Positions 5,384 through 27,138 of a DNA stretch of 64,000 nt are shown here, piece after piece. The stretch's first letter is position 1. The number at the start of each line of letters is the position of its first letter. Origin of the DNA: a virus. Taxonomy: Duplodnaviria > Caudoviricetes. Below the pieces are notes generated by a model. The model was given only the letters and a program-made list of their open reading frames with translations, had not been told where the DNA came from and did not search any database. Position numbers and translations under genes: made by a program. Where the stretch lies: IMG/VR virus record IMGVR_UViG_2770939586_000001; one strand, given 5' to 3'.

Positions 5384-6954
5384 TCACATCGAAAACTTCA
5401 GTTGACCAACAGTCTCTTTATACCTTTCGAACGTCATTACATTCCCAGCCCCTGTACAGTGCTCCGGCAAGTTAGCTCGAACAAGATGCTCCGCAAATGG
5501 TGGTGGTACCGAGTTTCCGCAGCGTTTCACTTGTTCAGCTTTTGGATACGAGTTACCATTGTGATCCTTGCCGATGATATAGTTGCTTGGAAACCCCTGT
5601 GCTGCAAATAACTCACGTGGTTGCAGCATCCTCATTCCAATATCAACGATCTGATAGTCTTGGCCGTGAATAGTAACAAGTCCAAATCTGTCTTTTGTTG
5701 GTACGGTATGCAGTGGCTCTCGTACATCTTGCCCGATGCCAGCACCGTAGTATTTCACCAGAAACGCTCTAACTTCTCCAACATGCTGCCCGCCGGCTGT
5801 AATTGTCGGCATAGGAACAGTTACTGGCTGGCCGTCTTTGCAAGTACCACGAAACTTAACCAAATGACTTGTGACAAGTGCGAATCGGTTGGCTGTACGA
5901 TCGTGTGTAATGGTTCGTCTGGTTCATGACCGCGTACTTCTGTTGGTGATGTTTCGCCATAGTATTTTGATAGAAAAGCTGTTACCAGGGCGTTATGATC
6001 AACCGTCGTTACTGTTGATAATGGCTCGTTGCAATCAGTTCCGGGTCCGGTATATCCTCCACCGTAATGCTTTGCTATGAACGGTTGTATTAATAAGTGC
6101 TCAGCTTTAGTGGTAATCGTAGTTAACGGTTGATTGATTTCGTATTGCAGACGATCTCCACCGAACCCTGTCTGCCCGATCCGCACGATGAATGGTTGCG
6201 GATTTTCTAATACAAATCGTTTAATTCCTCGGGCGATGCGCCGTAATGTATTCTCAGCCAACTGTTTTTTCCGTTCAAATATGCTAGGGCATGGTAATGT
6301 CCAATCAATAATTTCCGATGCTGTTCTCCACGGCATCAAATTTCCTTTCTTAACATCATCGCTATCTGGATCACCGTGCGTAGGCTTCGGCCAAACAATC
6401 GGCTTCCCATCACACCGTGCAATTAGGAAAAATCGTTTGCGTATTGTAGGAGCTCCATAATCGCATGCTCTGAGTTCCCTATAGTCCACTTCATATCCAC
6501 GTTTCTTTAACGCATTTACAAATTCGTCGAAGGTTTCACCTTTTCTATCAGGGTCTGGCTTTCCGTTTTTCAACAGAGGCCCCCATGTCTTGAATTCCTC
6601 TACATTCTCCAACATAATGACCCTTGGCTTAACCGCATTTGCCCATTTGACAGCAACCCATGCTAATCCCCTGATGTTTTTCTCGACCGGCTTGCCCCCT
6701 TTTGCTTTTGAGAAATGTTTGCAATCTGGGCTAAACCATGCCAGTGCTACTGATCGGCCTTTGACTGCTTCTTTAGGGTTCACAGTCCATACTGATTCGC
6801 AGTAGTGTTCTGTGTCTGGGTGATTTGCCTGATGCATCGCAATAGCATCCTCATCATGATTGATGGCAATATCAACACTACGACCTGTTGCCATCTCAAT
6901 ACCGGTACTCGCACCGCCACCACCGGCGAAATTATCGACTATGATCTCCTGCAT
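5384..6954 (-). pseudogene. C5 DNA cytosine methyltransferase split by a one-base frameshift near 5897-5899
   Basis: 5821..6954 has FAGGGG, SPDC, ENV, RKRFF; 5384..5863 has RMLQPREL, QGFP, GNSV; restoring one base at ATC-GT-ACA joins them as ...PLHTIxTANRFALVTSHLVKFRG... Confidence 0.85.
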
Positions 6955-7001
6955 TCAACTTCTCCTTTCCTCGCAATATCACCGTTTGACGTAATAATAG
7001 G

Positions 7002-7349
7002 CTATTCACTATCGTTAATATGTCGTAACCACTTGACATTCGGCATGTAGTAATCGACAAGTTGACTTTTACCACCACGCGGAACAGCTACAATAGCACG
7101 ATTGGTTTTCTGGGCTACATCCTGACCCTTTAACTGATTGCCACTGATACCTTTTGGAAGTATCTGTTTTGCTGATTCACCAGGAGGAAGGTATGTCAAG
7201 AATATGCCGATAGGTTGCTCTTTCTTGACTGGAAATGTGTTACCGATACCGTTGCTCCATGTTACTTTGTCGCCTGGTTGGAAATCTTCCCAGCCTACAT
7301 AATCTACTTCAATTCTGATTTCATCATCGTAGAACATTGGATTCTTCAT
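7002..7349 (-). CDS. Hypothetical phage protein
   Basis: ORF in operon; AAGGAG RBS before ATG 7349. Confidence 0.65.
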   Translation of the reverse strand: MKNPMFYDDEIRIEVDYVGWEDFQPGDKVTWSNGIGNTFPVKKEQPIGIFLTYLPPGESAKQILPKGISGNQLKGQDVAQKTNRAIVAVPRGGKSQLVDYYMPNVKWLRHINDSE

Positions 7350-7395
7350 GCAATTTCTCCTTTCTGTATTTTTCGCTATACATACTCTATACGGA

Positions 7396-7815
7396 TCACT
7401 CACCCTTTTTTTCAGCTGATTTTATCTTTTTTACAACTCGACCGACTGCACTTTTGGAGTAACCGGTTTCCGCCGCGATCTTTCGCACGGTGTACCCTTT
7501 CCTATGCAGCTGCTCAATCTGCTGAAACTTTTCATCTTGCCATCCGAGGGCTTCTTTCAACTCTGGAACGGTGCAGCCAGATTTCCGTGCCTGATAGTAC
7601 AGCCGGTTATAGACCGGAAAAGAGTGTTTCTGGGGAATAGGGGGGAGGGATGTGTCATCTACTAGCAAATATCTCTCATCCCGTAATTCCGGGGCCAGCT
7701 CAATAAAGTAATCTACTGCGTATCGATATAAGCGATAGTCTTTTCTCCTGACTACACTTAGAAATACAATGCCGCCGTTATGATGCTTTGCTAATCGCTT
7801 GGCGACTGGAGTCAT
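7396..7815 (-). CDS. C-terminal helix-turn-helix DNA-binding protein
   Basis: LHRKGYTVRKIAAETGYSKSAVGRVVK HTH. Confidence 0.75.
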   Translation of the reverse strand: MTPVAKRLAKHHNGGIVFLSVVRRKDYRLYRYAVDYFIELAPELRDERYLLVDDTSLPPIPQKHSFPVYNRLYYQARKSGCTVPELKEALGWQDEKFQQIEQLHRKGYTVRKIAAETGYSKSAVGRVVKKIKSAEKKGE

Positions 7816-7841
7816 ACATTTCTCACATCCCTCGCGCTGTA

Positions 7842-8171
7842 TTATCTGCCGCTGTAACGCAAATGAAGGGCTTCGAATACCATTTCTTTATTGTCGCTAT
7901 CCAGATAATCCATGTCACCTAGATTGACTTTGTTATGATCGTTGAAGCAGTTTAGTGCAAGATTTAACATGAACTTTTCTGCTGGAGACCAGGCGCGTGC
8001 AGCTCGTTTGAGTTTAGCGATTTCGATCTGCTCACCTTTGAAGTCTACAAGGTGGATATATTGACTAAGCAGCTCATGCTGGGTAAAGAGGTAAATGATT
8101 GGGCGCCAGTACTGGCTGCGGTATAAATGATCGGGGATAGTCTGGCAAACGATTGGTTCAGTAGTTTTCAT
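7842..8171 (-). CDS. Hypothetical protein
   Basis: GGAGATGA RBS, operon context. Confidence 0.7.
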   Translation of the reverse strand: MKTTEPIVCQTIPDHLYRSQYWRPIIYLFTQHELLSQYIHLVDFKGEQIEIAKLKRAARAWSPAEKFMLNLALNCFNDHNKVNLGDMDYLDSDNKEMVFEALHLRYSGR

Positions 8172-8240
8172 TTTATCATCTCCTGATCTACTTTCATCTA
8201 CTTACAGTATATTTAATGGGCAAGGCACATATACAGACAA

Positions 8241-8327
8241 TTATTTCTCCAGACGACTACGCATTTCTTTGAGCATACGGCGAATGTCGCGGCCCTTACC
8301 AGCATAGACGAACATTATACGGTGCAT
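8241..8327 (-). CDS. 28-aa MciZ-like micropeptide (not in ORF track)
   Basis: MHRIMFVYAGKGRDIRRMLKEMRSRLEK; GGGGATGA RBS; overlaps upstream stop; shares GKxx[ED]IRxxLKE with B. subtilis MciZ. Confidence 0.55.
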   Translation of the reverse strand: MHRIMFVYAGKGRDIRRMLKEMRSRLEK

Positions 8328-9568
8328 GGTATCATCCCCTGTTCAGTAGTGAAATCATGAATTGGAACGAAACTATCACGGTTAATGAAAGTAAAGTTGT
8401 ATATGAAATCTGCCCATCCTTCGAAAATCCGCATGTACATCGTTTTTCCATCGCGGTGAATACACTCCAGTAGTACCCAGTCGTATTGATCTGATTTGTA
8501 TAGACGAACCGGAACGCCGATGCCTGTTTTCTGCCAGTGGGCCAGACGTGTAGAAATGTACTTGTTTTGCTCGGATGTGAGTTCTGGGTGAGAGAATACT
8601 GTATGCTCAACATGGTTCTGATACTCCCGAATTAGCGTGTATTTCTCAAGCTCGAATTTTTCAGCGGCTCCGCTTCGTTTCTGATTGCCAGCTATATCCC
8701 ACATGAAACAAAATGGATATGGTGTTTCGAGTGATGTATTTACACATTCCAGGATGATATGGCCGTCTTTGTCTTGGAACAGACGTAGCGGCTTGACGTT
8801 CGGTTTGCTCAAGCGTGCATCCAGTGCGACCTGTTGTGCATCGGTGAGTTGGGGCTCGGCAGGTTGTGAATCTGTACTGGGATCTCCTGTGCTTGACTCG
8901 CCGGAAAGAGACTGTGCGAACCCTAGGCGCTCCGGCGTTTGTTTGGCGATCCATGCCTTTTTAGGCTGGAACCAGCGGAATCCATGTGCTTTGAGCTGGG
9001 CGAGAACTTCCGGTGCTGGCTTGGATCCGAAACTAACTTCGATACCGTTCTTTTCTTCGTTGAGTGTGATAGTGACAGACTCGGATGGTTCACTGATTTG
9101 TGCGACTTCTTCAGTGATCATGGTAGTTTCTGCACTTGTCTGGGATTGCTTGCGCTCGGCTTTTTTCGCTTGCCATTTTGCCAGACGCTCGGCATACAAT
9201 TCATCAGCAATGCGATTGTACTCTTCGCGGTAGCGGCGGAAGTATGAGTGATCTTGCTCGTACTGCTCAATTAGTTCCTGGTCCATACGCTCCATGATGG
9301 CCGCACGTACTTCATCCGTTTCACTGGCTTGGGCTGTGATGAACATGTTACCGCCGCTCAAAATTTCTCCAGTTGCATCGCAGTAGCGAACTTTCGCGAA
9401 AGAGTCTGTGATTGTGGAAACAGTGGCAGTAGACGGCAGACCATCCCAAGATACGCGAATAGATGCACCCAGGGAATAGCGCTCGGATCGGACAGAGAAC
9501 TTTGTAGCTGGGAATTCCTTTTTCAGAACAGTGCGGATTTGCTTTGCGATTTCTACAACATCAGCCAT
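8315..9568 (-). CDS. LPD29 (large polyvalent protein-associated domain) containing protein
   Basis: AKQIRTVLKKEFPATKFSVRS..GASIRVSW N-terminus; EKNGIEVSFGSKP..LKAHGFRW..KKAWIAK domain; ATG 9568 after GGAGATGA. Confidence 0.75.
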   Translation of the reverse strand: MADVVEIAKQIRTVLKKEFPATKFSVRSERYSLGASIRVSWDGLPSTATVSTITDSFAKVRYCDATGEILSGGNMFITAQASETDEVRAAIMERMDQELIEQYEQDHSYFRRYREEYNRIADELYAERLAKWQAKKAERKQSQTSAETTMITEEVAQISEPSESVTITLNEEKNGIEVSFGSKPAPEVLAQLKAHGFRWFQPKKAWIAKQTPERLGFAQSLSGESSTGDPSTDSQPAEPQLTDAQQVALDARLSKPNVKPLRLFQDKDGHIILECVNTSLETPYPFCFMWDIAGNQKRSGAAEKFELEKYTLIREYQNHVEHTVFSHPELTSEQNKYISTRLAHWQKTGIGVPVRLYKSDQYDWVLLECIHRDGKTMYMRIFEGWADFIYNFTFINRDSFVPIHDFTTEQGMIPCTV

Positions 9569-9946
9569 ACATATCATCTCCTTGTAAATTGTCCCAGTTA
9601 TATTTAGGGTAGAATAGCCAGATTGAAACACTGGTGGGAAAATGCCTACATCTAATGCCGTTAATAGCGAGTGACACAATAAAGAGAGTACGGATAGGGG
9701 TAACAGGATACGGCGATGGATGAGAGAGGAGGGAGGCATGGTGAGAAAAGGGTGAAGGGGTGTCTGCTCCCGCCAGCATACTCGGATATAACTTTTCCAT
9801 GCGTTGCACCATGCATATCGCGTACATTAGTGCCTGTATATGCGTATATCATCCGTGTTTTTCACCTCGAAATGCCACTCGTTCACATATCCGAATACAC
9901 CACTTGCGCCAGAATATCCGAACAATACCATTTGCAGTAGGTAGAA

Positions 9947-9978
9947 CAGGAGAGGGGAGTATAAACTCCCGCGCCCTG
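9947..9978 (-). terminator. Hairpin directly after the radC stop
   Basis: GGGAGT-TTAT-ACTCCC core on the minus strand with an extended CAGG/CCTG stem; no strong U-tract. Confidence 0.4.
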
Positions 9979-9979
9979 G

Positions 9980-10432
9980 TTAGTTCATGTGACCTTTACT
10001 TTTCAAACTGTAATGCCTTCCATCTCCTATGATAATGTGGTCAAGCAGTTCGATGCCCAGAACCTTTCCAGCTTCTTGTAACCGGCGCGTCACGTCTAAA
10101 TCTTCACGGCTCGGTCCTGGATCGCCGCTTGGATGGTTGTGAAACACTACGACAGATGTAGCGTTATTGAGCAATGCCCGTTGGAATACTTCGCGCGGAT
10201 GTACTACGCTACTGTTTACCGAGCCGGAGAAAATCAGGTGTGCGCCGATGATCTCATTCTTGGTGTTGAGTGAGAACATGCCAAAGTGTTCATTCGGCTT
10301 GCTGGATAGGCTGAAAATCTCCTCGATTGCGCGATAGGCTGCGTCTGGACTGGTGACTTTCTTGCTCTCAATGTCATACAGCGCGGCTTTATCCCGGATT
10401 AATTCTACAGAAAATACGTTGATTCGTTTCAT
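9980..10432 (-). CDS. radC: RadC-like JAB/MPN domain protein
   Basis: VHPREVF, HNHPSGDP.PSRED, LLDHIIIG. Confidence 0.92.
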   Translation of the reverse strand: MKRINVFSVELIRDKAALYDIESKKVTSPDAAYRAIEEIFSLSSKPNEHFGMFSLNTKNEIIGAHLIFSGSVNSSVVHPREVFQRALLNNATSVVVFHNHPSGDPGPSREDLDVTRRLQEAGKVLGIELLDHIIIGDGRHYSLKSKGHMN

Positions 10433-10488
10433 ACATATCATCTCCTGGGTAAAATTCGGGGTTCATCCCCTGTTCTGCCTACTGCTAC

Positions 10489-10512
10489 CTACCATAATGC
10501 GTATTATGGTAG
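10489..10512. promoter_or_regulatory. Perfect 10-bp inverted repeat upstream of radC
   Basis: CTACCATAAT-GCGT-ATTATGGTAG; each arm contains a CATAAT -10-like hexamer. Confidence 0.5.
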
Positions 10513-11314
10513 ATGTAATGGGGTGGAAGCGCATCGACGCTCGGAATTATAGGCGTTTATCCAGGCGATGCAGTAAAAACAAAGTGATAAGCAGCAGTAC
10601 ATTTGCCGATGCTAAAAGCCAAACCATGAAAATCACCTTCTTTCTTGCATTTTGGTGGTCACATCGCATAAACTACTGGTAAGGAGAGAAGGCGGGGAAG
10701 TTGAGCGACTTACGCCCGCCTTCCCTTTCTTTATTCTTGCTGTGAATCCGATGTGTCCGCATCGGATTTTTCTTTTTTCTCCCTGCTTGCTTCGATGTTG
10801 AACTCTATGTTGTTCCATTTGAAGCTAATCTTGATGCTTTTGTATGCGATGCAGAGAGCAAGAAAGAGTGCAGTAACCGCAAGAATCGTGACTAAATCTG
10901 GTTGCATTTGCCTTCACCTCCCTTCTCAGTAGAGTCCTCTTTACCCGTGGAGGGGAGCGAGGAAGGAAGGGGATGTTCATGCGTCTACCTCCTTTGTCGA
11001 TGCGCTTCCGGTATTCGGTTTTCAAGGTGCGGCGTGTGTCTGTCGTGGTGTTGACTCAACTATGCATGCGTGGAAAAAAGTTGGGTAGAAAAGTTTTTGT
11101 GTGCCGGTGGATGATAGGGAGCTGTCTGGTGATAGAGTGAATAGCCCCCCCAGTGCTTGGGATGACGCGGGTCTGCGCTTCGCGCCGGGGGTGTCTCCGA
11201 GCACATATATAAATTTTTTTGTCAACTCTGTTGCGCGTCTTGTAAAACTCAAAATTTGCATGAAAAAATGGGCTATTCTTAAAAGTGAGCCTGAATTTTT
11301 TATATGGTAAATTT

Positions 11315-11344
11315 TTGTTCCAAGTTGTTGCGGTGTGCTATGAT
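11315..11344 (+). promoter_or_regulatory. Sigma-A-like promoter of the rightward operon
   Basis: TTGTTC-N18-TATGAT with extended TG; followed by AGTAGAT repeats at 11348-11382. Confidence 0.5.
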
Positions 11345-11405
11345 ATGAGTAGATGGTAAGTAGATACTTGTATCTATCTACCGTCGCGATTTTGAAGATG
11401 AGGAG

Positions 11406-11855
11406 ATGATGACGATGGAGATGAATGAGCAGTATGTAACGGGTAGTCAACATGTAGCAACGCTCAAAACGTATGTATCGTACGAACAGGCGAAAGAGCA
11501 CATGGAGTTGCTGCTGAAGCTTAAGTCTAACGGAATGAAAGTAGAGCAGGAGATTTCGGCACTTGTAAAGTGGATGAGTGAAATGTTAGGTATCGAACCG
11601 GAAGATACGAGTTTTGCGGTGGCTAAACTAAAAGCATTCAGACCATCGATTATGGTGAGGATGTTCATGAGTCAAGCGAATATAAGTGAATACACTAAAG
11701 GGAAACCTTCTTATGGCTATAATGCCGATACGATTGGAGCACACAGTCAATCTGATGTACAGGTATACGTTCCTGTAAGTGAAATTGTAAAGTTTGACAA
11801 TGTTGCAGGAAAGCTTGTAGGGTACAAGATACGGGGAGATGAAGTATGTGAATGA
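11406..11855 (+). CDS. Hypothetical protein
   Basis: First ORF of the rightward operon; GGAGATGA RBS suggests a start near 11415. Confidence 0.7.
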   Translation: MMTMEMNEQYVTGSQHVATLKTYVSYEQAKEHMELLLKLKSNGMKVEQEISALVKWMSEMLGIEPEDTSFAVAKLKAFRPSIMVRMFMSQANISEYTKGKPSYGYNADTIGAHSQSDVQVYVPVSEIVKFDNVAGKLVGYKIRGDEVCE

Positions 11856-14894: not shown

Positions 14895-15048
14895 TGTGAA
14901 AGAGCATGGATTTACACTGGAGAAGCAAGTAGAACAGACATTGAAAAAGGAAGATTTCTTCAAGGGATATAAGCGGCCTGAGTATTTCAAAACTGGTGGA
15001 AGATGCGATTGTAAAAACTGCTCATGTAAAAAAGGTAAGCAGTCATGA
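14895..15048 (+). CDS. Small Cys-tailed protein (start approximate)
   Basis: GGAGGTG RBS then GTG; ends CDCKNCSCKKGKQS; overlaps terL start. Confidence 0.45.
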
Positions 15049-16757
15049 GTAACTTTTATTTAAACAAACTTCTCGGTGATTTCGCTGAGATGGCCGAAAG
15101 TTATGAGGAAAAAGAGGGGATCTGGCGTGAAGAACCGCTAGATTTATTCGAATTTTGTAAGCAGCAGTTAGATATTACACCGTTTGAAGGTAAACAAACG
15201 GAAATTTTCCGTAAAATCAACAACGTTGTCATGTGGAAAATCACACAGGACGAGCAGTATGCGGATACAGCAGAGCAAGATTTAACTGAGATTTTACTCC
15301 TGCTCGGCAAGGGTTCTGGGAAAGATTATATACTAAGTGCGGTATTCTGTTGGATTTCGTATCTGTTAAATTGCTTGAACGATCCACAGAAAACACTAGG
15401 AATAGCTGAGGGGGAAGCGGTTGATCTTGTCAACGTTGCGAATAACACGCATCAAGCGAATGAGGTGTTTTTCTTCAAATTCAAGCAGCGCCTTGCGAAG
15501 TGCGCGTTTTTCAAGCGTGTAGATCGGGAACCGCGTGCGTTTAATGAGTATCAGCCAATGCGGTCTATGATTCGCTTCTTCAACAACATCAAAGCACATT
15601 CCACTCATGCGGATGCGGAAACACTAGAAGGCGCGAATCCTTTCGTTGTGGTATTCGATGAAATATCTGGTATACCATATGAACAGGCTGACAAAGTATA
15701 TGATACGTTCAGTTCATCAGCGGCCACACGCTACAATGACCGTATGCTCCTTCTGTTTATCTCATTCCCGCGTCATCAGGGGGACTTCTTGTATGTCAAG
15801 TTCACTAAGTGGGAGCAGGAAGGTACGCCGCATATTTGGGGCATCAAGGGGAAGTCATGGGAAGTTAACCCGAAAATATCACGGGATAGTTTGCAGAAGT
15901 TTTACGACAAGAATCCAGAAGATGCTAAGATGCGTTATGAATGTATTGCACCGGAAGCGGAAGCAGGATTCTTCGAGTTCCCAGAGAAAATTGACTATGT
16001 AGTTGTGCCGGGGAAGGCTGCACAGTGTCCGGGTGTGGTGATTCAGCAAAAGGTTACGACTCGGATGCTGAAAAACGAAACAGAGGTTCACTTTGTCGGG
16101 TTGGAGATTTTTAACCTGCAATTGAATCCTGAGTACACCTATTATCTCGGCGGCGATGGCGGTGTGGTAACAGATAGCTATGTATTGTGCTTGATGCATG
16201 GAGAACCTACTGTGAAAGAAGAGACGATAGATGTCGAAGTAGTGACACGCATCGTGAATAAGCCGGTAGAGGATTTGTTACTTGAGTGGCGTCCGAACAA
16301 GAAAGAGCGCTTGCCGGTTGATTTGATGAACGTAGCGGAGATTATTGAGTTGATATGTAGTCAAGTGTATGTGAAGAAGGCGCTATTCGATAAGTTTAAC
16401 TCCGCAGATATTACACAACGGTTGATTTCTCTTGGAGTTGATGCGGAGGACAAAAACTTCTCCAACCAGTTTCAAGTCGAAGCCTATAAAAACTTACGGG
16501 GCCTTATCTACACGCAGAATATTGAGTTGTTGGATCACCAGATTACAGATGGTAGTGAGCGTCTGAACGCGAATGAGGAATTGAAAAGGTTGAAGTTGAT
16601 TAATGACTCGAAGATCGATCACGACAGGCAATACGCAAAGGATTTTTCCGATGCACGGATAGCCGCGACTTGGATTTGTACGAACGATACGCCGGAATCA
16701 GAAAGTCATGCGGCTGATATTGGGTTGTTTGGAGCTGTGCGCGGTTCACGTATGTAG
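15045..16757 (+). CDS. terL: Terminase large subunit
   Basis: GKGSGKD Walker A, VVFDE Walker B, ISFP coupling motif, RNase H-like GGDGG..DS, DH....KDFSDA. Confidence 0.9.
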   Translation: MSNFYLNKLLGDFAEMAESYEEKEGIWREEPLDLFEFCKQQLDITPFEGKQTEIFRKINNVVMWKITQDEQYADTAEQDLTEILLLLGKGSGKDYILSAVFCWISYLLNCLNDPQKTLGIAEGEAVDLVNVANNTHQANEVFFFKFKQRLAKCAFFKRVDREPRAFNEYQPMRSMIRFFNNIKAHSTHADAETLEGANPFVVVFDEISGIPYEQADKVYDTFSSSAATRYNDRMLLLFISFPRHQGDFLYVKFTKWEQEGTPHIWGIKGKSWEVNPKISRDSLQKFYDKNPEDAKMRYECIAPEAEAGFFEFPEKIDYVVVPGKAAQCPGVVIQQKVTTRMLKNETEVHFVGLEIFNLQLNPEYTYYLGGDGGVVTDSYVLCLMHGEPTVKEETIDVEVVTRIVNKPVEDLLLEWRPNKKERLPVDLMNVAEIIELICSQVYVKKALFDKFNSADITQRLISLGVDAEDKNFSNQFQVEAYKNLRGLIYTQNIELLDHQITDGSERLNANEELKRLKLINDSKIDHDRQYAKDFSDARIAATWICTNDTPESESHAADIGLFGAVRGSRM

Positions 16758-16758
16758 A

Positions 16759-16785
16759 AATAACCCGGTATAGAACCGGGTTATT
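16759..16785. terminator. Bidirectional terminator between terL and the relaxase gene
   Basis: AATAACCCGGT...ACCGGGTTATT inverted repeat between convergent genes. Confidence 0.7.
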
Positions 16786-17383
16786 GGTCTTTTATAGCGT
16801 TTTTATCCATGAATTCATTGACATCTTTACTTTGGAATACCCGGAAGTGTTCACTTTTTACATTGTATTCTCTTTCTGTAATAAGCCATACATGACCGAA
16901 ATGGTTGCGTTTCTCGGTCCACTTGTCACTAAGAAAATAGGATTCGTATCGCTTGATTTTGTCCGTAATCATTTTTTCTGAATAGATGCTACGCTGAATC
17001 TCAATAAACCACGGAGCACCTTTCCAATGCATATAAATATCCGGCTCAGGTTCACCTTTTTGGAATTTTGGTTCAACAATGAATTCTTTTGGATAGCCGT
17101 ACATTAAGATTTGCTTGTAGAAATCTACGATGAGCAGGTAATGGTTCGTCTTTTGTCCTCCGATTTTGGTGGATGCCGGATTTGGATAGTACACATACGG
17201 CTGTGTGGTTGTATCCGCTTGAATGTATCCGTCTCGACGCAGACGTTTTAATACCAAATTGCAATTGCTGGTTTTACTTTTGTTCGTAGAGAAAAACAGG
17301 TCTGCAATCTGATCGCGTGTCATACATCTAAACATAGACAGGGTGTCGATGATGCGCTTATCTCGTTGTCGCACATTTGTCAC
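16781..17383 (-). CDS. Replication-relaxation (Replic_Relax) family protein
   Basis: RDKRII..L..FRCMTRDQIA wHTH, H.L.IVDFY, PDIY..FIEIQRS nuclease motif; coupled to FtsK. Confidence 0.85.
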   Translation of the reverse strand: MTNVRQRDKRIIDTLSMFRCMTRDQIADLFFSTNKSKTSNCNLVLKRLRRDGYIQADTTTQPYVYYPNPASTKIGGQKTNHYLLIVDFYKQILMYGYPKEFIVEPKFQKGEPEPDIYMHWKGAPWFIEIQRSIYSEKMITDKIKRYESYFLSDKWTEKRNHFGHVWLITEREYNVKSEHFRVFQSKDVNEFMDKNAIKDQ

Positions 17384-18687
17384 TCCAAGTCGAATATTTT
17401 ATTTTCCTCTATTTGCTCCGGTTCGGGCCGGGGCTTTTTTTGTTGGTATGGACGTAGCATTACCTTTGCCATTTTGTCAGCTAAGAACGGGGCCTGGATT
17501 TCCTGAAGGCCACGTTTATATTTTACAAAAGCATAGCCGTCTTCGATTTCTCTATCTGGCTTCATTCGCATGTTTAGGGCGATACCGTAGTTAATATCGT
17601 CTGGCTGGCGGAAGCAGATGCGGACGGTAAGACATTGCTTCAGTTTTCCATCTAATACAGTGCTGTCTGGGCGCTGCATACTTAGCAGGAGAAAGACTCC
17701 ATTCGAGCGACCGACAATTGCGATGTTTTCGATTTTCTCCATGATCGCTTTGTTATCACGGAGCAATGCTACTTCATCAACACAGACAACGATGTAAGGC
17801 ACTTGCTCTGGCAGATCGTCAATGTGAACTTTGCCGTGCTGACGCAAAAGCTGACCGCGTCTTTTGATTTCTTTCTCTATTTTAATCAGTAGTTTGAGTA
17901 GTTTTCCTTCATCGTTTTCATAAAGAGATGCCTGCACATGCTCAATGTTTTCAAACAGGTGAAACTCACTTCCTTTTAAGTCGCAAAGATACAAGTGAAG
18001 TTTTTCAGGGGAAAGGTGTTTTATCCAGGTAGTAATAATCTGCCGGATTTCGGTTGATTTCCCGCTGCCAGTTTCGCCGCAGATAAGAAGGTGTGGATTG
18101 TCAATCATATCAACGATTAGCCAGTATCCTTCTTGGTCTTTACCGATGACGATAGGTAGTTTCATGTCGGATAAGTGGGGGAGAATTTCGTCGAAGTCGT
18201 AGGCGAACGTTTGAATTCCTTTATAATAGGCTTTTACTGTAAAGTGTTTTCCGGTATGCTCAATGAACACATGCTGACCAAATTCTTGTTTAAATAGCCA
18301 TTCTGCTTTGTATACATCGTCTGGATTTATGCCGAAGACGATGTTAAATACGATGGTAATACCTTTGTTGTCGTATTGAATCGCGCGGATTTGAGGATAT
18401 ATTTTCCGTCCGTTTTCTCTTTCTCTGTAGATTTCTCCTTCATCAAAAATTCGTTTCAAGCTGCGTCTTGCTTTTGTATTAGGCATTGACTGATACGTAT
18501 AGTTGGCTACGCCGAGTGAGGTGCATATGCCTGCCAACTTTAAGGCTTGCGTTTTAAGCGCTGTGATTTCGTAAGGGCTAAGCGAATGGATAGGGAGAGG
18601 GATTCCAAACAGAGCCATAGTTTTCGCTGTCATGAAAGCACCGAAGCCGATAGCTAGTGTACCTTGCAACGGAGTCATCTTTTGCAT
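17380..18687 (-). CDS. FtsK/SpoIIIE-family ATPase with N-terminal membrane anchor
   Basis: PHLLICGETGSGKS, DLKGSEF, VCVDE, GRSNG, QRPD. Confidence 0.92.
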   Translation of the reverse strand: MQKMTPLQGTLAIGFGAFMTAKTMALFGIPLPIHSLSPYEITALKTQALKLAGICTSLGVANYTYQSMPNTKARRSLKRIFDEGEIYRERENGRKIYPQIRAIQYDNKGITIVFNIVFGINPDDVYKAEWLFKQEFGQHVFIEHTGKHFTVKAYYKGIQTFAYDFDEILPHLSDMKLPIVIGKDQEGYWLIVDMIDNPHLLICGETGSGKSTEIRQIITTWIKHLSPEKLHLYLCDLKGSEFHLFENIEHVQASLYENDEGKLLKLLIKIEKEIKRRGQLLRQHGKVHIDDLPEQVPYIVVCVDEVALLRDNKAIMEKIENIAIVGRSNGVFLLLSMQRPDSTVLDGKLKQCLTVRICFRQPDDINYGIALNMRMKPDREIEDGYAFVKYKRGLQEIQAPFLADKMAKVMLRPYQQKKPRPEPEQIEENKIFDLE

Positions 18688-22667: not shown

Positions 22668-24095
22668 ATGGCAAGCAGGAGATACCAAAAGCGAAAGCAG
22701 GTTAAACAAAAGCAAGCGATGGCGAAGTCGTCTGCACCATTGACGAACGTAAATGACTTTGGTGGAGCACGAACAACAAAGTCGCAACTACGTGCAGGTG
22801 ATTCAGTACCAAGGCGTGTACGGAAAGATTTGAGCCTTGATGAACGGAAGCTGAACACACTACCTGTCGAAAGATTGATGGACTTACTTATCGATGCTCA
22901 CCCTGATGTGGGGTTTGCACTATGGAATTTCCTACGAATCGGAAATACGGATTACATCATCAATGTGAAGAAGCTAAACAGCGATGGTGAGTTTACACAA
23001 GGTAAAAAAATCATCGACCAGTTTATTCAGGCATTATCGATGCCGAACCCGGAACGATACGAGATTAACAGATCGCTTGATAATTTGATTAACCAGCTAC
23101 TTTTGACAACCGTAACGCGAGGTGCTGCATCGCTGGAGACGGTGCTTGGTCAATCGATGTCTGGTGTTGCTTTTCTAGCCCCAATTGATCCGGCCACCAT
23201 CGAGTTTAAGTTTGAGAACGACAGATTTATCCCATATCAGGACAGCTTAAGTCTTGATATTCCCACCTTTTTCTACGAAGCACTAGATCCACTAATCGAT
23301 AGCCCAACCGGAAGAAGCCCCTTTTTAAACGCTATTCAAACCGTCATGTTCCAACTACAGCTACTCAACGATATCAAAGCCGTTGTGCATAACCAGGGAT
23401 ACCCACGCCTAGACATTAAGATACTTGAAGAACTTGTTATCAAGCGCATGCCTCCACATGTTAAGCAGAACGAAGAGAAAAAGCGTCAATATCTACAGGA
23501 GAAGTTACAAGAAATTATCACGATGTACGAACAACTAGAAGCAGATACCACGTTTGTACACTACGATTCCGTGGAGATGGGGATGGTTGGTGGTAAAAGT
23601 GGCGGCGGTGGCGCAATGTTCGATGTGGAGAAGCTAATGGGCGTGATCGACGGGCTTCTTGCAGCTGCATTAAAGACACTGACGACCATTTTAGGACGTA
23701 GAAGCACTGGGAATACGGAGAGTTTTGCCAAGCTTGAAGTAAAAATGTATCTTAAAAGTGTCAAGGCACTTCAAGATGTGGTGGCAAAGCTGTTGAGTCG
23801 AGCGTTCACACTTCTGCTTAATCTGAACGGTAAGCAGGGGATTGTTGAGTTTAAGTTTAGAGAGGCAGACTTACGAAGTGAACTGGAAAAAGCGCAGTTT
23901 GAACAGATTCACCTGCTTAATTGCCAGTTTAAATACAATATGGGCTGGTGGACGGCAGACGAAGCGGCTCAGGCTGCGGTTGGACACAGTGCCGTGTCAG
24001 ATCCAATTCATAATGTTGTGCCGACGAATAAAGATGGACAAACACCAAAAGGAAGTACGGACAACAACCCTAAAGCTGGCGGTAGTAGCGGATAA
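22668..24095 (+). CDS. Portal protein
   Basis: Position before the protease, size, LAPIDPATIEF and PTGRSPF..A portal-like motifs. Confidence 0.75.
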   Translation: MASRRYQKRKQVKQKQAMAKSSAPLTNVNDFGGARTTKSQLRAGDSVPRRVRKDLSLDERKLNTLPVERLMDLLIDAHPDVGFALWNFLRIGNTDYIINVKKLNSDGEFTQGKKIIDQFIQALSMPNPERYEINRSLDNLINQLLLTTVTRGAASLETVLGQSMSGVAFLAPIDPATIEFKFENDRFIPYQDSLSLDIPTFFYEALDPLIDSPTGRSPFLNAIQTVMFQLQLLNDIKAVVHNQGYPRLDIKILEELVIKRMPPHVKQNEEKKRQYLQEKLQEIITMYEQLEADTTFVHYDSVEMGMVGGKSGGGGAMFDVEKLMGVIDGLLAAALKTLTTILGRRSTGNTESFAKLEVKMYLKSVKALQDVVAKLLSRAFTLLLNLNGKQGIVEFKFREADLRSELEKAQFEQIHLLNCQFKYNMGWWTADEAAQAAVGHSAVSDPIHNVVPTNKDGQTPKGSTDNNPKAGGSSG

Positions 24096-26072: not shown

Positions 26073-26145
26073 GAGATGAAAAGTAGGTAGGGACTATCCC
26101 TATAGTAATGAACGCGAAAATGTTGATGAAAGGAAGATGACATGT

Positions 26146-27138
26146 ATGGGTAATTCACGTGGATACAAGTCTACGCAGGAAGCACATGATGACGTGCTGC
26201 TTACCAATATTGCGGTGGGCTATAAAAATGAGCAGTTTATTGCGGATATGGTGTTTCCGAAACTCCCAATGGTGAGCAAGCAATCAAACCGCTACAAAGT
26301 GTTCGGTATGGAAGATTTCCGCCAATGGGACGATAAAATCGCTGCTAATGGGGCTGTAAATGAAATTCAGTACGGTGAATCAGAAGATGCGTATTTCTGT
26401 GACGGGCACGGTTTGTCGCGTCCGATCTCGAAACAGGAGAAATCGAACAGTGACGATGAGACGCAACTCGAAGTTAATGCTACGAGACTTACCACAAGTC
26501 TTGTACTGTTGAACAAAGAAATTGATGCGGCGAACAGAGCGATGAATCCAGCATCGTATGCGTCTGGACTTTCTACAACGCTCGGAACAACAACGCTGGA
26601 TACGATTTTCGGGAAAAAGTGGACGGACCCTACTTCTGATCCGGTTAAACAGGTGGACAAGGCGAAAGAGTATATCCATATTAATTCCGGTATCCGTCCA
26701 AATGTGCTGGTTGTCTCAGAAAAAGGGTTTACAGCACTTAAAAATCATCCGATGTTTATGGAATTAATCAAGTATTCCCAAACAGGTATTGTCACAAAAG
26801 AGCTGCTGAAAGCCGCGCTCGGGGTGAATGATATTTACGTTGGCGCTGCACTCCGCACGACTCAACCATTTGGGGCTACGCCTCCAGGTAAACCGGAAGC
26901 GCTGAACTATATCTGGGGTAACGGCGCTGCACTCATCCACGTCACTGACACGCCGGATCCCCTTTCTCCAACATTCGGTTACACCTTTGAATGGGATTTT
27001 GCTGGAGAGAAGGTGGCACGCCGCGTTCGTAAATGGGAAGATGTGCGCTCGGAAGCTACTTATGTGGAGACGAAATATTACTACGATCAAAAGGTCGTGT
27101 GTAACATTGCAGGCTTCTTGATGGCCGATGCGATTTAG
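26146..27138 (+). CDS. Major capsid protein
   Basis: LTNIAVGYKN..FIADMVFP, KWTDPTSDP, RPNVLVVS, LKNHP, PTFGYTF. Confidence 0.88.
   Translation: MGNSRGYKSTQEAHDDVLLTNIAVGYKNEQFIADMVFPKLPMVSKQSNRYKVFGMEDFRQWDDKIAANGAVNEIQYGESEDAYFCDGHGLSRPISKQEKSNSDDETQLEVNATRLTTSLVLLNKEIDAANRAMNPASYASGLSTTLGTTTLDTIFGKKWTDPTSDPVKQVDKAKEYIHINSGIRPNVLVVSEKGFTALKNHPMFMELIKYSQTGIVTKELLKAALGVNDIYVGAALRTTQPFGATPPGKPEALNYIWGNGAALIHVTDTPDPLSPTFGYTFEWDFAGEKVARRVRKWEDVRSEATYVETKYYYDQKVVCNIAGFLMADAI

Follow-up and report, generated by a model that had tools for sequence, protein, structure and literature searches.

We report that a 28-codon open reading frame in a prophage of Aneurinibacillus, a soil-dwelling spore-former (positions 8241 to 8327, minus strand), is very probably a real gene under selection, and that its small product belongs to an orphan family of which two alleles are known. 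A preliminary description of this DNA had compared the product to MciZ of Bacillus subtilis, a sporulation division inhibitor that acts on FtsZ. The likeness is found at the level of a motif. We consider it reasonably likely that the product is a phage micropeptide which would bind one protein partner by means of an amphipathic helix, and that the MciZ motif is coincidental.

Prophage setting and expression signals

The window, i.e. the whole stretch of 64,000 nucleotides that was analyzed, is a tailed prophage of Aneurinibacillus in which terminase, portal, major head and tail genes are present. The relevant features are:

7842 to 8171, minus strand: downstream gene of 109 aa, function unassigned, with its own Shine-Dalgarno sequence
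8172 to 8240, minus strand: spacer of 69 nt that separates the micropeptide stop from the downstream gene and contains the Shine-Dalgarno sequence of the latter, AGGAGATGA
8241 to 8327, minus strand: micropeptide gene of 28 codons, ATG at 8327-8325, TAA at 8243-8241
8315 to 9739, minus strand: upstream gene, listed as an ORF of 474 aa, Pfam LPD29 (E = 3.8e-14)
9980 to 10441: RadC, in the leftward gene string
15045 to 16757: large terminase
22668 to 24095: portal
26137 to 27138: major head protein
Further members of the leftward gene string: HTH protein, 133-aa protein, C5 DNA methylase, SNF2 helicase, second DNA methyltransferase, PAPS-reductase-like protein
Also encoded: a protein of 2,908 aa that carries a minor-tail/tape-measure domain, and a tail lysin in which M23 and amidase domains are present

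The operon that holds the micropeptide is made up of leftward, non-structural genes. It had been called an early phage operon; the leftward non-structural prophage operon is there, and the label "early" we infer from the gene content alone.

Two other observations were made in the window. The C5 cytosine DNA methylase (5384-6954, minus strand) is broken up into two ORFs that overlap and lie in different frames, of which the one at 5821 to 6954 corresponds to positions 4-166 of the Pfam DNA_methylase profile and the one at 5384 to 5863 to positions 269-320. The split could be due to a frameshift or to an error of assembly, or the gene could be a pseudogene. Two genes typical of conjugative or integrative elements, coding for an FtsK/SpoIIIE-like ATPase and for a Replic_Relax (replication-relaxation) protein, are flanked by the large terminase and portal genes (16781-18687, minus strand).

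The 28-codon frame was recovered on the minus strand with exactly the translation that the preliminary description had quoted. The ribosome binding site and the overlapping stop of the LPD29 gene, both reported there, are likewise present: a Shine-Dalgarno sequence AGGGGA (8340-8335, minus strand) lies 7 nt before the ATG and within the 3'-terminal part of the upstream gene, and the stop of the LPD29 gene and the start of the micropeptide overlap by 13 nt. The real start of the LPD29 gene is probably internal to the listed 474-aa ORF. That the micropeptide gene is translationally coupled to the LPD29 gene appears fairly probable and forms part of the explanation preferred here.

The frame might also be devoid of a functional peptide. 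It could be open by chance over a 3'-UTR or an RNA element, or it could merely couple ribosomes from the LPD29 gene to the next gene. This alternative, which we regard as unlikely, can refer to the fact that an open frame of 84 nt is in itself not rare, and that the antisense frame across the same 84 nt is likewise open in both alleles. However, the antisense frame has no start that would yield at least 20 aa within the window, and an antisense ORF was ruled out as a real gene on account of this and of its poorer conservation. The remaining two sense frames across the ORF are interrupted by stops. An Rfam search of positions 7000-11500 left the micropeptide region without a match (the sole match was miRNA noise elsewhere), and the terminator scan found no terminator in the ORF or in the spacer following it, both of which argue against an RNA element. 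The combined promoter and terminator scan gave nothing that exceeded the shuffle expectation; one promoter-like site (9/12; 8197-8170, minus strand) spans the start of the downstream gene and is the sole such site in the ORF and the downstream spacer.

Orthologue in Aneurinibacillus danicus and selection on the reading frame

To look for relatives at the DNA level, 61 related genomes were searched with the 859-nt micropeptide region. A single full-length relative was found, in a syntenic prophage of Aneurinibacillus danicus NBRC 102444, a member of the same genus, with 72% DNA identity. The same search also picked up a fragment of the downstream gene in a second genome of the genus (G004). Conservation of the ORF in related phages had been suggested as a check together with tblastn, and it was seen in this one prophage by the DNA search of related genomes; when the peptide was compared to 50,697 phage records by tblastn, noise was obtained, with seven records in total, all at E>=7 and all in Holliday-junction resolvase genes of Microbacterium phages.

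The orthologue of A. danicus comprises 31 aa. It shares 19 of the 28 residues of the window peptide, and the replacements are mostly conservative. The position of the ATG is kept, as are the open frame and its overlap with the stop of the upstream gene, and the Shine-Dalgarno sequence (GGAGGTGA) is stronger than that of the window and again spaced by 7 nt. Over the ORF the nucleotide identity is 77% without a gap, in contrast to 54% in the adjoining spacer, and a 13-nt indel follows directly after the stop codon of the window. The differences within the ORF are distributed over codon positions 1, 2 and 3 as 6, 4 and 9.

The dN/dS according to Nei-Gojobori is 0.22 for the micropeptide ORF and 0.175 if the overlapped codons are excluded, with 0.11 and 0.10 for the flanking genes (0.10 for the downstream 109-aa gene). 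As just two distinct alleles exist, this signal rests on a single pairwise comparison with 9 synonymous and 10 nonsynonymous differences. For a frame without a functional product one would expect neither a dN/dS of 0.18-0.22 nor a prevalence of conservative replacements, nor the conserved ATG and Shine-Dalgarno spacing, nor an ORF free of indels beside a spacer that carries one. These observations lead us to regard the micropeptide ORF, with a high degree of confidence, as a selected gene.

The neighborhood of the gene differs between the two prophages in its upstream part. The LPD29 protein is modular: its C-terminal approximately 180 aa (8318-8860) are 81% identical to the counterpart in A. 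danicus and are the sole part shared, while the N-terminal halves differ, the window protein having LPD29 and that of A. danicus (L005, 192-1904) a different domain. In G004 the homologue of the downstream gene (L006, 89-745) codes for 111 aa with a weak match to Pfam DUF6075 (E = 7e-4). Upstream of it we found unrelated ORFs of 74 and 53 aa and an Xre-type repressor, and the micropeptide is absent. The micropeptide is therefore no obligatory partner of the downstream gene, and this case can be counted in favor of a frame without function.

Occurrence of the peptide

The peptide is rare. If a profile of the peptide is run over 401 genomes of the class, true matches occur in 2 of them, i.e. the host genome and A. 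danicus. The other 149 genomes with a match at E<=1 were rejected as noise; the best of them, with E = 0.0039, falls within a frame of 160 aa. The upstream protein's C-terminal domain is also present in 2 of the 401 genomes, and its search against genome, viral and metagenome collections recovered the A. danicus allele alone. An IMG/VR viral contig of 98,984 bp and two contigs from metagenomes carry this allele as well; being the same allele, these copies are not independent. A search of genome contigs with the 109-aa downstream protein did not find relatives.

The protein collections gave the same picture. Among 1.84 billion protein representatives one cluster of 31 aa was obtained, which is the A. 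danicus allele itself. The gene had been described as unannotated, and in agreement with this the exact 28-aa sequence is absent from approximately 15 billion predicted proteins, among which the 31-aa allele occurs once and without a name. No match was obtained by blastn of 3.5 kb against the 50,697 phage records, and a search of the ESM Atlas gave no usable match to the peptide. In PHROGs the window peptide matched 0 families at E<=1, and the orthologue had one match of 13.1 bits (E = 0.16) to a family of unknown function. The two alleles, the single cluster and the 2 of 401 genomes can be counted in favor of a frame that is open by chance; it is the conservation between the alleles described above that speaks for a gene.

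Properties of the peptide and proposed mode of action

The peptide is strongly basic, with a pI of 11.4 and a net charge of +5.6. A hydrophobic N-terminal stretch is followed by G-K and by an amphipathic helix of 16 residues. The hydrophobic moment of residues 13-28 is 0.74, a value which was equalled by 120 out of 10000 shuffles. The AlphaFold2 monomer is a single helix (residues 2-30, pLDDT 80.7), which is weak evidence as the alignment has two rows and the peptide is very short.

Size, charge, amphipathicity and operon context together suggest a mechanism of stoichiometric binding. The hydrophobic face of the helix would dock onto one protein partner, and the docked peptide would block this partner stoichiometrically, in the way of small take-over or anti-defence peptides of phages.

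A more specific form of such a role is suggested by the neighboring genes. The peptide might inhibit a restriction or abortive-infection protein of the host, and the 26-residue Stp peptide of phage T4 may serve as a model of such a small inhibitor. The operon is rich in genes of an anti-restriction or establishment type (two DNA methyltransferases, SNF2 helicase, PAPS-reductase-like protein, RadC, LPD29). The PHROGs result, with no family for the peptide and just a 13-bit match of its orthologue to a family without assigned function, does not lend weight to this idea, and a role like that of Stp is in our view quite improbable.

Similarity to MciZ: scores and calibration

The comparison to MciZ was followed up with profile searches in both directions. 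In a Pfam search at E<=10, MciZ (PF13072) is the sole family that the window peptide matches, with 14.6 bits and E = 0.028. The gathering cut-off of this profile of 37 positions is 22.2 bits, and real MciZ genes in six-frame scans reach 21.5-78.6 bits. The HMM search against the family, named in the preliminary description as a means to check its proposal, therefore ended below the cut-off. The orthologue of A. danicus has no Pfam match at E<=10.

With an HMM of our own, built from 30 MciZ genes collected from genomes, the peptide scores 11.0 bits, and 1 out of 20,000 composition-preserving shuffles is as high. Its stop-to-stop frame ranks first among the 1,859 frames of at least 20 aa in the window, with 10.4 bits compared to 5.9 bits for the next. 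The orthologue obtains 8.1 bits. If the test is reversed and the peptide profile is compared to the 30 real MciZ sequences, the best reaches 10.1 bits (equalled by 2 out of 9,000 shuffles), while the median is 2.0 bits and is equalled by 4.3% of the shuffles. The comparison of both by hhalign gives a probability of 16.4% (P = 0.0015) over 20 columns.

To judge these values, the whole host genome (4.12 Mb in one contig) was scanned in six frames with PF13072. Three matches were obtained at E<=10, and the peptide is the third of them with E = 1.03. The top match (17.6 bits, C1:900520-900615) was considered as the host mciZ and rejected. It consists of the in-frame leader and the first residues of a 168-aa redoxin/AhpC-TSA gene (L001, 1492-1998), and is evidently spurious. 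The same control search gave matches at E<=10 in 9 out of 14 unrelated genomes. From the genome scan and the control genomes it follows that a PF13072 match of such strength is expected about once per genome. In NCBIfam both alleles of the peptide match SecE at E of approximately 0.1; this match is meaningless and marks the noise floor for the peptide. A phmmer search of the peptide against the PDB gave 0 matches at E<=10. The match gains in interest from lying in a small gene that is real, but coincidences of this kind are bound to turn up if very many windows are scanned.

Features of MciZ that are kept and missing

The core of B. subtilis MciZ that the preliminary description quoted agrees with the deposited chains 2MRW and 4U39. 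For the analysis of individual columns we aligned 22 diverse MciZ peptides taken from genomes; the resulting profile matches both of these B. subtilis chains in the PDB. HMMER and hhalign agree in placing residues 6-25 of the peptide on residues 10-29 of MciZ without a gap, and thereby reproduce the identical spacing of hydrophobic strand, GK, acidic-I-R and LKE that had been pointed out before. The common gap-free stretch of 16-20 residues reads hydrophobic run, G-K, x, x, acidic, I/V, R, x, x, L, K/R, E. Compared to the 40-aa MciZ of B. subtilis, 8 of the 20 aligned residues are identical, and both peptides are small and basic.

The columns M1, G14, K15, W17 and L23 are invariant in the 22 MciZ peptides. 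In both phage alleles G10, K11 and L19 fit G14, K15 and L23, so that three of the four invariant columns other than Met are kept. R16, which is conserved in A. danicus, fits the R/K column of Arg20, and the acidic residue of the peptide fits an E/Q column. Arg20 is functionally important in MciZ, and roles are also attributed to Trp17 of MciZ and to Asp280 of FtsZ. The positions that match conserved MciZ columns are those kept between the two phage alleles, and sites at which the alleles differ also vary in MciZ. Of the marks of MciZ, the peptide thus shares the pair G-K, the Leu and a basic residue in the column of Arg20.

The differences are equally clear. Trp17, invariant in the 22 aligned MciZ peptides and in all 30 from genomes, is Arg in both phage alleles. 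The 30 genome-derived MciZ sequences have 39-54 aa compared to 28 aa of the phage peptide, which extends 5 residues before and 3 residues after the aligned stretch. This leaves neither an N-terminal hairpin nor a second helix possible in the peptide. The alignments therefore bear out the exchange of Trp17 for Arg and the missing last helix, both of which had been stated in the preliminary description. An AlphaFold2 model of MciZ (22-row alignment) contains strands 2-6 and 9-13 and helices 16-27 and 33-39, i.e. a hairpin and two helices, in contrast to the one helix of the phage peptide (weak, from the 2-row alignment). Trp17 may pack against a conserved aromatic residue of helix 2, in which case the joint loss of the Trp and the second helix would be coherent. 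The context differs as well: MciZ is encoded on the chromosome by a sporulation gene, which the section on mciZ in PMC10730256 describes as expressed in the mother cell under sigma-E, whereas the phage peptide is encoded in a prophage operon.

Of the resemblance to MciZ that had been claimed, the likeness of the motif stands. Membership of the MciZ family fails on score (14.6 compared to 22.2 bits), profile-to-profile probability (16% by hhalign), the invariant Trp, architecture and context, with an orthologue that has no Pfam match and a shorter peptide.

FtsZ as a potential target

The preliminary description had gone one step further and proposed a block of host division. In such a view the hydrophobic strand of the peptide would join strand 9 of FtsZ and its helix would lie on H10. 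Arg16 would take the role of MciZ Arg20, the addition of subunits would be blocked, and host division or polar septation would be stopped. We hold this to be improbable, and the same judgement applies to its minimal version, in which a peptide of MciZ type, reduced to strand, G-K turn and helix 1 and either convergent or very remotely related, would cap FtsZ filaments during lytic growth and so halt host division or asymmetric septation; we consider it a doubtful candidate.

The target itself is available in the host. The FtsZ of the host (L031) matches B. subtilis FtsZ (2VAM) with 569 bits, its C-terminal subdomain is highly similar, and the H10-strand 9 stretch differs at few positions. According to the passages on this complex in PMC10730256, PMC7430163 and PMC8456036, the N-terminus of MciZ forms two strands upon binding to FtsZ, and the contacts are made with H10 and strand 9 in FtsZ's C-terminal domain. 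The near identity of this stretch means that the surface used by MciZ exists in the host FtsZ.

The distribution of MciZ across the class is patchy. It exceeds the Pfam cut-off in 75 out of 301 class genomes, in 6 out of 7 genomes of a sister family of the same order, and in 0 out of 10 genomes of the family of the host, including 0 out of 6 of the genus. The host appears to be without an mciZ of its own among the genomes searched, and a phage copy would therefore not be redundant.

Small phage inhibitors of FtsZ are known with Kil of lambda and Gp0.4 of T7, as reported in the relevant parts of PMC8456036 and PMC5045927. Both are from phages of enterobacteria, and in the account given by PMC8456036 their sites on FtsZ are not known. 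Like the phage peptide they are small and from non-structural, presumably early operons, and this precedent makes division inhibition plausible for a peptide of this size. A relation in sequence to either is undetectable, as none of the PHROGs families is matched by the peptide at E<=1. A precedent for MciZ itself is not seen among the 50,697 phage records, where tblastn of one real MciZ gave just noise at E of approximately 10.

In favor of FtsZ as the target one may thus name the sole Pfam match, the first rank among the frames of the window, the few shuffles that score as high in either direction, the conserved columns G, K, L and R/K, the similar FtsZ of the host, its apparent lack of MciZ and the precedent of Kil and Gp0.4. 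Against it stand the score below the cut-off and the low hhalign probability, the 8.1 bits of the orthologue on our own HMM together with its lack of a Pfam match, the Arg in place of the invariant Trp in both alleles, the genome-wide E of 1.03 that is outscored by a spurious match in the same genome, and the low median of real MciZ on the peptide profile. The single predicted helix (weak, from two rows) and the phage records without an MciZ point in the same direction. The architecture also disagrees, since the peptide is too short to hold the first strand of the hairpin that, as PMC10730256 describes in its part on the complex, forms upon binding, and the second helix is absent.

On present evidence from sequence comparison, the likeness to MciZ would be no more than chance can give. 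It is best described as coincidental or at most convergent, and not as family membership.

Implications

A methodical aspect arises from the calibration. Matches to a profile of 37 positions need to be calibrated genome-wide, as illustrated by the stronger spurious match in the same genome.

If the reading as an FtsZ inhibitor were true, the peptide would be the first phage-borne peptide with the binding mode of MciZ. It would define a minimal FtsZ-capping motif of 20 residues, which would be of interest for peptide inhibitors of Gram-positive division, and phages would then disturb the division of spore-formers via the very surface that is used by the host's own developmental regulator. Independent of this, the finding adds one conserved and previously unannotated micro-gene to the non-structural operons of phages.
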